Origin: Octopus vulgaris
Lineage: Eukaryota
DNA length: 64,000 nucleotides
Assembly: GCA_951406725.2 (NCBI GenBank)
Contig: OX597817.1
Location: 132,804,001 to 132,868,000, forward strand
Reading direction: 5' to 3'
The notes beneath the pieces are model-generated. The model was not told where the DNA came from and made no database searches. It saw nothing but the letters and a program-made list of their open reading frames with translations. Each line of letters begins with the position of its first letter. The first letter of the stretch is position 1. A program made the position numbers and the translations under genes. Below are positions 4,131-59,938 of this stretch, piece after piece.

Positions 4131-4279
4131 CTTTATTTAAAAGCAGCAGAAATATAACAAAAGCTGTTACTTAGCTTTTGTTATATTTCTGCTGCTTTTA
4201 AATAAAGCATATTACTCTACCTCTGGTATTTGAATACACATTTTTCGACCTTGTTTCACATTTATGTGTTTACTCCGGT
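4131..4279. mobile_element. Hairpin remnant of HHR element family H1 (ribozyme deleted)
   Basis: Perfect inverted repeat 4131-4165/4173-4207, then a tail ending CCGGT(TA)n; homologous to 16645-16851, 23156-23403 and 31621-31695. Confidence 0.75.
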
Positions 4280-6594
4280 ATATATATATATATATATATA
4301 TATATATATATATATATATGTATTCAATTTGAGGTTCTGTTAAAATCATGAAAGGATGGTTTCATCCAAGGAAATACTGGTTCAATACTTAGTATTTGGG
4401 GGTTATAATGAACGCCATGACGACGATGGCGAAAACAATGATAATGATGAACATGATGACGACGACGACGGCGACGACAAGACCGGTGACGACGACTACA
4501 ACCCAGTATTGTCGATGATGGTAGTGAAGATGATGTTGGTGATGATGATGATGATGATGATGGTGAGGAGGAGGAGGAGGAAGGGGAAGAAGTGGGGAGG
4601 AGGAGAGGGAAGGGGAGGAAGAGAAGAAGAAAAAGAAGACGAAGAAGATGATGATGATGATGATGATGATGATGATGATGATGATGATGATGACGACGAT
4701 GATGATGATAATGATATTGATTATAATAGCGTCTAAATTTGACACAAAGAACTACGAAAATCTGGGCACGGGATAAGTTAATTCAGCGGAACATAGTTGA
4801 ACATTGTTGAACATAATGTAGAGGTGGAACCTGGCGTTTCATTGGTCCTTTTTTGACGTCGTAATGTGAACTAGATTCTCTGGTCAAATGAATTCAGCAA
4901 TAAATATTTAAATTGCAATAAAAAATAATTACTTTAATGGAACAAACATATGTCACAAGTTACCATTTTCTGCTTCTTTTCAATACAAGGGGGTGGAGGG
5001 TGGCGGCGGTTATCTTTTTGTTCTTACGTGAAGTCATTGTTTGCAAAAGTAATACGAATGCCACAGACGTTTATAAACGCCATTGTATTCGCAATTCGCT
5101 ACAGGGATTGACATCAGTTACAGAGAGAGAGAATAAAAAAAGAAAAAAGCAAAGAAGTAGGGTTTAAAAATAAAGGAACAATGATGTTTCTAGAAAATCC
5201 TTTTAAAAAGTACTTGTGACAGCGGCTTGTATATTCTACTTAGTAATGCGAAGAACTCGTTCCTTCTGAGAAACAGAATGTTTAGTGGAAAGAGCTACCG
5301 TAATCGATGGCAAATAAAATGCACATTTTCCTCAAAATGTCTCTCAAAGAATCACTCTGGGTTCTTGGTATGAAGGTAGGTTTCCCATAAGCTTTAATAC
5401 ACTGAAAATCCTCTGCCGTCCTTAAATGCTCTCTGCTGATATTGAGGTGCGTCTAATGCTCTCGTGCATCTTATATGCCATCATGTACCATAGCTATGCA
5501 CACAGGCATGGCAGAGTGGTTCAGAAGTTCAATCCCGCTTCTCAGAATCACGACCAAGTGTCTCTATCAAAGCCTGGAGTCGACCCAAGGCTTGCGAGTG
5601 AAACTGGGTAGACGGAAGCGACAACAACAATAATGATGTTGATGATGATGATAGTGATGGCGGCGACGACGACGATGATGATAGCGAGGACAGCGGCAAA
5701 GAAAACAATGGCGATGATGATCCCCACGACGAGAACAACGATGACGATGGCGGTCCAGGGTTGTCACACTGAGCTACGCTGATCTTACCAGAGAATTTCA
5801 TGGCAAGTACACATGTCCATGGAATCTTCAGAATGCTTAGCGGCATTGAACTCAGAACATAGCGGCAGACGGAATACTGCTAAGCATTTCGCCCGGCGTG
5901 CTAACGTGTCTGCCAGCTCGCCGCCTTTTAAATCTACTATAAAAATACTCTTGTGTTTTTCTCCGTCACAACATATGAATGAGGCAGAACGGGGTGATAG
6001 ATAAATAAGGAAGGAAAGGGTGATGGCAAACTGGTAGTGGGAGCGTTTCAACACTGTGTGAGAATATGTGTGCCTATGTAAAAGGAGGTATGTGAATGTG
6101 TGTATGTGTGTGTGTGTTTCTGTGTGTTTCTGTGTGTTTCTGTGGGGGGGGGTGCAATTGAAGTGGGATGGTGAACATTCAACGCTGAGTGTGAGTATAT
6201 GTGTGTGTATGTAAAAGGAGGTATGTGACTCTGTGTGTGTGTGTGCGTGTGTGTGTGTGTGTGTGTGTGTGTGTGTGTGTGTGTGTGTGTGTGTGTGTGT
6301 GTGCAATGGAAGTGGAGTGTTGAACATTCAATGATGAAAAGAAAAAATCCAACAGCGTTTCAACTCTGTGAGTATGTGTGCATGCGTGTATAAGGGAAGT
6401 ATGTGAATATTTGTATGTGTGAATCAGCGTTCTTTCAGTAACAAACGATGATCGATATCACATCTCAAAAGACAACCACTAGATAACATTGAGAAGTGTA
6501 TTAATTTGATTTACCATCCATATTCATACATAAAAATGCTACAATTAGCTGTTAATTTTGAGGGCACGGGACCAGCTAGCAATTGTAATAATCC

Positions 6595-6948
6595 TTCCTG
6601 CTACAGGCAGAAGGCTTGAAATTTGGCGCAAGGGGACCAGACGATTAGATCGACCCCAGTACGTAACTAGTACTTAATTTATCGACCCCGAAACGATGAA
6701 AGGCAAAGTGAACCTCGATAGAATTTGAACTCAGAACGTAACGGCAGACGAAATATCTATTTCTTTACTACCCACAAGGGGCTAAACATAGAGGGGACAA
6801 ACAAGGACAGACAAACGGATTAAGTCGATTATATCGACCTCAGTGCGAAACTGGTACTTAATTTATCGACCCCGAAACGATGAAAGGCAGACGAAATACT
6901 GCTAAGCATTTCCCCCGGCGTGCTAACGTTTCTGCCAGCTCACCGCCT
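6595..6948 (-). mobile_element. SINE family B, two nested or partial copies
   Basis: GTACTTAATTTATCGACCCCGAAACGATGAAAGGCA (Meta-like core, reverse) occurs twice; head at 6890-6948. Confidence 0.8.
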
Positions 6949-8789
6949 TTGAATAATAAATATCCTTTTCTACTCAAGGCACAAGACCCGAAATTTTTGG
7001 GAGAGGGGACCAGTCGATTAGATCGAAAGATTCTGCCAGCTCACTGCCTTTTAAATAATCGTAATAATGAAATGAAATGGGGTTTTGTGGAAAGTTAAGA
7101 AGAAATGATAATAAACATGGTGGCTTGAGATATAGAGAGAGGGAGAGGGAGGAAGTTGTTTTTGTGAGTGGGTTAGTTAGAGAGAGGAGGAGGTGAAAGA
7201 CAATGAGTCTGAAAGTTGGAATTAGAGGAGAGAGAGAGAGAGAGAGAAAGAAAGGGGGAGGGAGAGAGAGCGAGAGAGAGAATGGATCTGCAATGTCCAA
7301 TATGATTAATCTTAGCACTCTCTTAATTGTTGCTATCCATCATAGTGGACAATATATGCGTGTGTGTGTGTGTATACAGAGACAGAGAGAGCGATATATA
7401 TATATATATATATATATATATATATATATATATATATATATATATATATATATATATATTGAGAGAGAGAGGTACATACATATATATATACGCATATATA
7501 TATATATATATATGCATATATATATATATACATACATATATGTATATATACATATATATATGTATATATATACATATATATATTATATATGTAAATATAT
7601 ATATATACACATATACATATGTATGTATACATATAAATACACACATACATATACATCATACGTATATGCATATGTGTGTGTATACATATATATATATACG
7701 TATATATGTATGTATATGTATATACATCTACATATATGTATGTATATGCATACATATGCACAGACACACACACACACACACATATATATATATATATATA
7801 TATATATATATATATATATATATATATATATATATATGTATGCATGTATGTATGTAGTCATCAATTCAGAAACTCTTAGTTCCTGCCAAACATACAAGAC
7901 TACAAGACACACGAGTATGTGTATGTCTGTGTGTGTGTTTGTACTGTATGTACTAATTTGCCTGTATATATTTATGTGTGACTCAGTGTGCATGTGTCTG
8001 TGTATGTTTTCTTGTATGTTTGTGTGTTTGTGTGCTTGTGTATACGACTGGATGCGTACACATCATATGTGTCCCTATACGTGTGTGTGTATGCGCGCGT
8101 ATGTGAGTGAGTGTGTGTGTGTGTGTGTGTGTGTGTGTGTGTGTGCGTGTGTGTGTGCGTATGTGTGTGCGTGTGTGTATATTTCTATGCGTAATACGCG
8201 TAGCAGAAATGAATGTGGAGGTATTCATTTTTATAATTGCTCCTCTATCCGAGTTGTCAATATTTCTGCCTATGTTATTGTTGTTGTTGTTGTTATTGTT
8301 ATATGTTTCAGTTCTATTATTGTTGCTGTCATTCTTGTTGCTCATCTGGTCATCGGTTCAATGTTATCCTTGTCATTAGCAACCACACATCCTTCATCAT
8401 ATATAAATGTTGCTTCAGTGTTATGCGAAACTATGATCACACTTGTGTGTGATTTGATACCGAGATAAGTAAGTCTTATTTAGGAGAAAATAGGAAAACT
8501 TGGAAAAGGAGACAAATTCTCAGGATGTTATTTAAACATTTATGTCTTCATATCTTCTACATATGTTTCGATGGATACATCCAGCGTACGTCCGACAGGA
8601 TAAATTATTGTCAGCTATGCATCAGTCTCATCAGAGTAGATATAAACAACAACACTCATCAAATAGACATTTTTACATATATCTTTCTATATACATACAT
8701 GCACACACACACACACACGTATATATATATATATATATATATATATATATATATATATATATATATATATATATATATATATATACATA

Positions 8790-59290: not shown

Positions 59291-59306
59291 TTGTTATTAT
59301 TTGATA

Positions 59307-59495
59307 AGGCGGTGAGCTGGCAGAATTCTTAGCATGGGTGGGCCAAATATTCGGTGGCATTTCGTTCGTTTTTACATTCTAAGTTCAAATTTCGCCGATG
59401 TCGACTTTGCCTTTCATTTTTTCTGGGTCGATAAAATAAGTACTAGTTACGCACTGGGATCGATGTAATCGACTTACCCACTCCCCCGAAATTGT
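59307..59495 (+). mobile_element. SINE family B copy
   Basis: GGCGGTGAGCTGGCAGAA..GTTCAAATTTCGCCGATGTCGACTTTGCCTTTCAT..GGGTCGATAAAATAAGTAC. Confidence 0.8.
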
Positions 59496-59647
59496 TGTAT
59501 CGCCCTCGCTATAGAAATGCAATCTATTTATATTTTTATTGACTTCTCTCAGTGTTTTACTGATGCGTACTAGCCTATTTACACACAAATGCATGCATGC
59601 ATAACAATACATACACACACACACACACAGATATATATAAAAGTAGA

Positions 59648-59938
59648 AAATTGTTTATTATTAACAGCAAATAATAATCTTCCCTTACAGCTGTTTAAAT
59701 TAATACTCAGTAAATATTAAGTAAATATTAAATTTATATATATATATGACCTGAGCATGCCTGCTATAATGATACCATGTGCAAATATAAAACATCCAAG
59801 GGTAAATTTTTTCCCTCTGAAGATATTATGCACAGGTCATATAAATATAGATTTAATATTTACTTACTATTTACTGAGTATTAATTGAAGCAGCTGTAAG
59901 GGATGATGATTAATTTGCTGTTAATAATAAATAATTTA
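59648..59938. mobile_element. Palindromic HHR element (third partial copy at 58909-58978)
   Basis: Arms 59648-59760 and 59828-59938; tccct-CTGAAGA-tatta...taatt-GAAGC-AGCT-GTA-aggga at 59812-59903; the 58940 copy keeps GAAAC. Confidence 0.75.

Follow-up and report, generated by a model that had tools for sequence, protein, structure and literature searches.

The 64,000-nucleotide stretch of the Octopus vulgaris genome analyzed here (assembly GCA_951406725.2, contig OX597817.1, positions 132,804,001–132,868,000, or G000:C4:132804001-132868000; hereafter the window) raises the question of which elements leave so many type I hammerhead ribozyme motifs next to (TA)n repeats. A preliminary description had placed about 20 such motifs at 21 positions and ascribed them to non-autonomous elements of a Penelope-like or retrozyme system, a reading partly supported in this study by linkage to reverse transcriptase (RT)/GIY-YIG sequences, TA context and covariation. 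Searches of the assembly (2.8 Gb, 227 contigs) indicate that the window probably contains stubs left by the insertion of many retroelement families with hammerheads, embedded in (TA)n and comprising 3' ends of coding elements and units free of open reading frames (ORFs). The hammerheads of the window are real and occur far above chance.

With a strict type I hammerhead descriptor, 5 motifs were found in the window versus 0.07 in its block-wise dinucleotide shuffles. A first scored descriptor penalized U3-A8 and A3-U8 cores and was superseded by one allowing any Watson-Crick 3-8 pair. At a cut of score ≥11, the latter identified 14 motifs in the window versus a mean of 0.5 and a maximum of 2 in 20 shuffles. 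A tighter helix III limit, applied afterwards, reduced the count from 14 to 12. Eleven of them are among the 21 positions (8967, 17597, 17800, 23258 with U4C, 31622, 31870, 33482, 33760, 39774 with A9G, 44222, and 49801), and the other, at 13860 with a score of 16, had been overlooked. All 12, as well as the family consensuses, have three helices, the conserved core and an open helix I. Nine more positions are minimal, mutated or variant. The motifs at 40592 (score 9 versus 12 for its family consensus) and 54099 (without loop 3, with an extra A after A9 and a 3-bp helix I) are minimal and typical of their families. Real families are represented by mutated copies at 23219 (G12A), 33155 (A14U), 33933 (G5A), 59812 (A15.1G), 43746, and 44542, of which 23219, 33155, and 33933 each form the mirror arm of an intact copy; the motif at 17262 has a non-canonical core with A6U throughout its family. 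Because of its A9G change, 39774 is probably a dead copy. The remaining position, 49290, is unsupported as a hammerhead, with no GAAA in the window copy or in its single relative.

Descriptor hits at 24663 and 51138 were rejected for their long helix III; no hammerhead was found in the relatives of the former (0/12), and the latter had none. A TGA repeat around 34800 also gave hits, which were regarded as chance. That all motifs are chance matches in AT-rich repetitive DNA, as the unsupported 24663, 51138, and 49290 might suggest, is nevertheless hardly credible: it is refuted by family conservation, by covariation, and by a random genome sample of 80 arbitrary 10-kb stretches (800 kb; score ≥12), in which 34 motifs were found in 19 of the 80 stretches versus 0–2 (mean 0.5) in six shuffles.

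Extrapolated from this sample, in which 7 of the 34 motifs belong to one array, the genome contains about 117,000 motifs (bootstrap 61,000–187,000). The density of one motif per 3 kb reported earlier included broken copies and was too high for the genome as a whole; intact-looking motifs occur once per 5.3 kb in the window versus once per 24 kb in the random genome, and the window is about 3–4 times richer in motifs than the genome average. An ORF hit within 2.5 kb upstream was present for only 2 of the 34 random-sample motifs. The proposed targeting of (TA)n stood: (TA)4 was present no more than 300 nt past the cleavage site in 10 of the 12 window motifs versus 37% of random positions, and in 25 of the 34 random-sample motifs versus 24% expected.

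A check against RF00163 had also been proposed, and no Rfam hammerhead match reached the gathering score in the window or in loci L007, L036, and L284. Ranked by E-value, the best 150 of 286 matches included no hammerhead and were mostly microRNA models on microsatellites, which are very abundant in the window. Because the helices, being long or minimal, differ from those modelled, the missing match lowers the Rfam label only. Hammerheads with a split-core order numbered 0 in the window versus 0–1 in shuffles with an ad hoc descriptor that may not fit the fold. A repeat search of the window returned mostly microsatellites, yet it recovered long inverted arms. The hammerhead-related features of the window are listed below in window coordinates, inverted insertions without a strand; families are named after the window position of their motif.

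4131–4278, plus strand: 3' tail of the 23258 family folded back on itself, without hammerhead, ending in (TA)n.
8966–9057, minus strand: type I hammerhead with C3-G8 core and long helix II; multi-copy family, no ORF in 15 loci.
13860–13910, minus strand: type I hammerhead; family with a tandem unit of about 350 bp.
17258–17302, plus strand: minimal-hammerhead-like motif of a high-copy subfamily, A6U family-wide; activity doubtful.
17424–18062: head-to-head inverted insertion between two (TA)n, with a tandem unit of about 360 bp and no ORF; hammerheads with U3-A8 cores at 17597–17639 (minus) and 17800–17842 (plus); arms terminating 184 and 237 nt past the cleavage site.
23156–23410: inverted insertion with a hammerhead at 23253–23298 (plus, U4C) and a broken mirror copy at 23219 (minus, G12A).
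31618–31663, plus strand: type I hammerhead of the 23258 family, 43 nt from (TA)n.
31754–32217: inverted insertion of a young 490-bp tandem family; hammerhead at 31869–31973 (minus); minus arm terminating at +122 and plus arm at +236 relative to the cleavage site.
33065–33603: inverted insertion with a hammerhead at 33482–33576 (plus) and a broken mirror copy at 33155 (minus, A14U).
33628–34050: inverted insertion with a hammerhead at 33760–33843 (minus) and a broken mirror copy at 33933 (plus, G5A); compensatory helix changes in relatives.
39773–39851, minus strand: hammerhead fold with A9G core; probably an inactive copy.
40215–40755: inverted stub derived from a coding Penelope-like element (3' end), with a minimal hammerhead of U3-A8 type at 40599–40632 (plus).
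43746–43850, plus strand: degenerate hammerhead copy (U4C, damaged helix III), its layout kept in two relatives.
43903–44414, plus strand: remnant of a coding Penelope-like element, truncated at 5' so that the 3' end is left; the hammerhead at 44222–44256 has an A3-U8 core.
44424–44665: short inverted stub with a degenerate U3-A8 hammerhead at 44542; one relative (L199) intact.
49290–49539, plus strand: 3' fragment related to the 44222 family, without complete hammerhead.
49630–50167, minus strand: copy of an ORF-free tandem family of about 535 bp; hammerhead at 49801–49875.
54060–54235, plus strand: hammerhead in minimal form, lacking loop 3 and carrying U4C and an additional A behind A9; the family is old and present in high copy.
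59648–59938: inverted stub whose hammerhead at 59812 is damaged at a single base (A15.1G).

Ten window modules were searched genome-wide, with the best 40 candidates scored per search, and all ten families were multi-copy. The 618–2453 first-look candidates per module are lower bounds, not copy numbers. Because only top matches to window queries were taken, the family samples lean to window-like, similar and young copies. Relatives of 39774, 43746, 44542, 59812, 33760, and 17262 were sought within the fetched loci, which total 1.42 Mb and are biased to the searched families. The alignment consensuses of nine families form hammerheads, that of 54099 being only minimal and below the score cut. 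In the tenth family (8967), 14 of 23 relatives were intact and the remainder were half copies. The copy of this family at window positions 9000–9629 has a 317-bp internal repeat that bears the first hammerhead half only, as do half copies at other loci.

The 3-8 pair is Watson-Crick in 9/9 alignment-derived consensuses: C-G in six, U-A in two (17800 and 40592), and A-U in one (44222). Within the 17800 group, it is U-A in 37/37 window-like copies and C-G in a tandem array at L036. Among 11 relatives of 33760, 88% of cells pair and 8 of 14 pairs have changed on both sides. The covariation value of 0.378 was reached by 0/500 shuffles, and slid controls gave at most 0.132; the slid control weighs more, because relatedness alone can beat shuffles. 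The helix covariation described earlier was supported by the 33760 relatives and by 3-8 pair switching among families. The fetched loci contain 243 motifs of score ≥12 in 43 sequence clusters, 25 of which are singletons; far more families than the ten of the window therefore probably exist. The subfamily at 17258–17302, with 5 matches in 400 kb of random genome and 37 relatives in the fetched loci, keeps helix II, GAAA and the C3-G8 pair, yet has U at position 6 throughout; it is mobile with an apparently broken or variant core. A link of 13860 to the adjoining repeat, which resembles a short interspersed element, was rejected, as genomic relatives match only from the hammerhead onward.

Coding sequences were sought by tblastn with two Penelope-like proteins of the same genome as queries. 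No hit was obtained in the window, in agreement with the earlier statement that it contains no Penelope RT or GIY-YIG ORF. At the genomic loci, remnants of RT/GIY-YIG were found upstream in cis in 20/30 loci of the 44222 family and 10/20 of the 40592 family. Judged by these remnants, the two families are 5'-truncated 3' ends of coding Penelope-like elements rather than non-autonomous riders, and the description of all motifs as lying in non-coding modules was not confirmed. No ORF hit was found for 31870 (0/10 loci), 17800 (0/30), 23258 (0/25), 49801 (0/20), 33482 (0/20), and 8967 (0/15), and one each for 54099 (1/25) and 13860 (1/20). The module searches proposed for copy number and ORF linkage gave ten multi-copy families, with linkage in two, a single hit each in two and none in six.

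Four families are ORF-free tandems, with periods of 490 bp (31870), ~360 bp (17800), ~535 bp (49801), and ~350 bp (13860). Their 5' side wraps straight back into their own 3' tail, and units of 350–535 bp formed in this way are too short to accommodate an ORF. Tandem pairs of complete hammerheads were found in 31870, in a subfamily of 17800 and at one locus of 49801, not in 13860. The 490-nt unit of 31870, the one family folded, is strongly self-paired (z = −5.53, 0/100 shuffles). Contigs from four sequencing runs, three presumed to be RNA and one of unknown kind, covered 22–30 of 30 bins of this unit; being uninformative on strand, ends and circles, they were given no weight. Tandem wrap refutes for 31870, 17800, 49801, and 13860 the alternative that coding Penelope-like elements, copied in cis and truncated at 5', gave rise to every family, with no non-autonomous class. 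This is true for 44222 and 40592 and accommodates 33482, 23258, and 54099, which showed no wrap in 20, 25, and 25 loci; as an account of all families it is very improbable. Of the many non-autonomous ribozyme elements supposed earlier, the four ORF-free tandem families are likely examples, and 44222 and 40592 are not.

Elsewhere in the genome, many intact 781-amino-acid ORFs with RT and GIY-YIG and a CX4CXXC linker are sited in (TA)n. These elements could act in trans. In the 781-residue ORF of L056, a linker of the CX2-5CXXC type precedes a C-terminal GIY-YIG with internal cysteines; no named reference was among the best 120 of 785 homologues. The youngest autonomous family (L056:2405-6086 and L058:2267-5967) has a U3-A8 hammerhead with weak helix I. 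Its RT-endonuclease ORF is overlapped in another frame by an upstream ORF, about 480 codons at its longest, that gave no convincing Pfam match. No sequence match of ORF-free families to autonomous 3' ends was found. The ORF-free 350–535-bp units are likely copied in trans by the same Penelope-like enzymes; as no sequence link between an ORF-free family and an autonomous partner was found, trans-mobilization is inferred from their shared insertion footprint.

The footprint consists of mirror-image arms with unequal ends, and gives a clue to how the elements are likely copied. It was studied mainly in 29 loci of 31870, comprising 9 top matches and 20 chosen from the match list, many for their opposite-strand matches. 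Three loci were non-inverted, three were cut by locus edges, Ns or complex structure, and 23 were resolved as inverted. In 20/23, one arm ending at about +131 is paired with one ending at about +233–236 after the cleavage site; long-long and short-short pairs were absent (0/23 each; p ~1e-6 for 20/20 under independence). Similar pairing of long and short ends was found in distinct inverted loci of 17800 (6/6; 184/237), 49801 (2/2), 33482 (3/3), the coding 40592 (4/4; 135/170), and 23258 (9/9, one end from separate end-mapping). The 44222 family has two 3' end classes about 50 nt apart. The ends were unequal and not fixed in 2/2 inverted loci of 13860, and equal in a 54099 locus whose copies lie in opposite orientations. 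At L297:1154-1642, a copy of the 490-bp family without inversion and nearly one unit long begins at +134 and ends at +131, a layout that a single turn around a circle would give.

The two 31870 arms of one insertion differ at 29/6353 bases (0.46%) versus 1.81% between loci, and have 0.98% versus 0.30% non-consensus bases in common. Such common private variants are accounted for by another proposal, in which the mirror arm arises through fold-back or self-priming of one strand and endonuclease trimming of one end (PMC3846280, PMC8557442). At most 8/20 pairs could be nested without extra steps; in the other 12/20 each arm has private sequence and neither can copy the other. Moreover, the short-ended arm extends further 5' in 15/20 pairs, and both ends equal the in vitro RT start sites of a related element (PMC11167929). 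We therefore regard fold-back as unlikely. The pairing of long and short ends with non-nested arms is a testable double-priming rule.

The copying of these elements is best read as follows. Hammerheads would cut tandem transcripts, which would probably be re-ligated to circles, or the transcripts would be used uncut. A Penelope-like protein would cleave both strands of (TA)n, and each DNA end would prime RT at one of two fixed internal start sites on the same RNA, 35–105 nt apart, the interval being the "tail". Both complementary DNAs would pass the ribozyme site, in many cases extending beyond a single unit, terminate at varying positions and be joined head to head; the resulting mirror-image insertion would have unequal ends, one long and one short. 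Its most specific form we offer as a possibility, and tentatively as a whole: one dimeric enzyme would use one circular, ribozyme-made RNA to extend both ends of a double-strand break, one start site each; the "tail" would be the footprint between the two reverse transcriptases; and the roughly 100,000 hammerhead elements of the genome, dozens of protein-free circles with naturally re-paired catalytic cores among them, would record double priming thousands of times.

In 31870, 39/40 arms run across a cleavage site and 19/40 are longer than one unit. Crossing of the cleavage site fits both a ribozyme-made circle and an uncut multimer as template. It is thus equally compatible with hammerheads that are structural relics or protein-binding folds, uncut tandem transcripts being the templates and no circle being made. 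Cores with U4C or A6U, fixed in certain families, point the same way, as does the lizard element PAc, whose insertion in vitro had no need for cleavage and gave no reads ending at the site (PMC11167929). Compensatory changes of helices and of the 3-8 pair between families, however, argue for selection on an active fold, and retrozymes of coral, mussel and axolotl cleave and circularize (PMC7229834). On balance, relic hammerheads appear somewhat unlikely.

Several observations weigh against trans-copied, ribozyme-processed elements as the source of the window families. Cleavage, circles and transcript ends are predictions from sequence, and several families, with U4C or A6U cores or 2–3-bp helices, may be poor cutters. 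Hammerhead mutants of PAc were without effect on insertion in vitro (PMC11167929), and 8/9 frog retrozyme dimers were uncleaved in vitro (bioRxiv 10.64898/2026.07.22.740005). The 33482, 23258, and 54099 families could be long 3' untranslated-region stubs of unsampled coding elements, and a blastn comparison of the window modules with 45 GIY-YIG loci gave only hits read as neighbouring insertions. Finally, 3/23 inverted 31870 loci have a non-standard second end, and the similarity of arms could also be explained by gene conversion or by two RNAs transcribed from a single source locus.

The kinds of element are already known, as hammerheads in Penelope-like pseudo-long terminal repeats (pLTRs) and as non-LTR retrozymes, and the window families are further members of them. 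pLTR hammerheads are minimal and palindromic, with opposite-strand pairs and a U3-A8 variant (PMC4209133; PMC3088659); a U4C core is mentioned for hammerheads (PMC3088659). Penelope-like insertions have an inverted arm, a one-ended tail and a (TA)n bias, and the CX2-5CXXC linker before GIY-YIG is a hallmark of Neptune/Nematis (PMC8557442). Similar to endonuclease-bearing (EN+) elements of the Neptune/Nematis type, the octopus elements combine RT, C-terminal GIY-YIG and this linker with (TA)n bias and partial tandems. They also have the inverted 5'-truncated arm, one-end tail, minimal or palindromic-helix-III hammerheads, U3-A8 variant and opposite-strand hammerhead pairs 100–700 bp apart of EN+ Penelope-like elements, for which tails of 30–40 nt are reported versus about 35–105 nt here (PMC4209133; PMC8557442; PMC3846280). 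Different from known EN+ elements, one octopus family has a fixed A3-U8 core, helix II is 40–100 nt in many families, and most copies lack an ORF.

Similar to animal non-LTR retrozymes, the ORF-free families consist of tandem units of a few hundred bp with one type I hammerhead each, low GC and a strongly self-paired unit, and co-occur with Penelope-like elements (PMC7229834; bioRxiv 10.64898/2026.07.22.740005). Their units of 490–535 bp exceed the 170–400 nt in PMC7229834 and fall within the 51–972 bp of the preprint (bioRxiv 10.64898/2026.07.22.740005). Penelope-like elements have been named as candidate drivers of non-LTR retrozymes (PMC7229834), and retrozymes as non-autonomous Penelope derivatives are already in print (PMC7229834; for vertebrates, bioRxiv 10.64898/2026.07.22.740005). 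In the accessible parts of these two sources, the insertion footprint of two fixed ends, mirror arm and (TA)n was not used as evidence, and the 35 genomes of the preprint include no mollusc. Motif density in octopus is about 10 times that of axolotl (126,247 motifs; 28 Gb), as obtained with different descriptors (PMC7229834; bioRxiv 10.64898/2026.07.22.740005).

In PAc (Poseidon, Anolis), the tail is bounded by two internal sites of RT initiation on the 3' side of the hammerhead, cutting and extension affect both DNA strands, a dimer is predicted and targets are AT-rich (PMC11167929); similarly, the octopus elements insert at AT-rich targets and have two fixed ends that would correspond to internal start sites, both strands probably being used. 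In the accessible part of that study, start sites did not differ between strands and end pairing was not addressed; here long and short ends are paired in 20/23 loci. A 2026 octopus repeat annotation reports active Penelope-like families, the word "ribozyme" being absent from its accessible text (PMC13282606). In the main texts of the open-access literature, we found no description of cephalopod hammerhead elements, no natural A3-U8 core, and no count of long-short pairing with non-nested arms.

As the element kinds are known, the value of the findings lies in scale and testability. With about 10^5 motifs, octopus would rank among the most ribozyme-dense animal genomes in the literature compared. 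The build-up of tandem and mirror insertions and the role of the hammerhead are called open questions in PMC8557442 and PMC11167929. The footprint provides direct genomic evidence for retrozymes riding Penelope machinery, which was earlier argued from co-occurrence and sequence similarity. Young 490-bp ORF-free templates, two mapped start sites and an intact 781-residue candidate enzyme in one genome form a compact test system, and Penelope-like elements are the closest relatives of telomerase RT.

Other repeats are also present in the window. A very common repeat, the source of a false hammerhead hit, starts at about 24690–24780 (12 relatives in fetched loci); we take it to be Helitron-like. 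C-terminal zinc-knuckle/restriction-like endonuclease fragments of another non-LTR element, presumably HERO-like, lie at 26322–27155 (minus; no Pfam match) and 45639–46076 (plus). A broken non-LTR reverse transcriptase ORF at 51523–52748 (plus; RVT_1 match), which we assume to be RTE-like, is unrelated to the hammerhead families. Finally, the inverted arms at 17424–18062, 33065–33603, 33628–34050, and 40215–40755 would form near-perfect hairpins of 140–230 bp if transcribed, and such hairpins would then be substrates for adenosine-to-inosine editing or small-RNA pathways.

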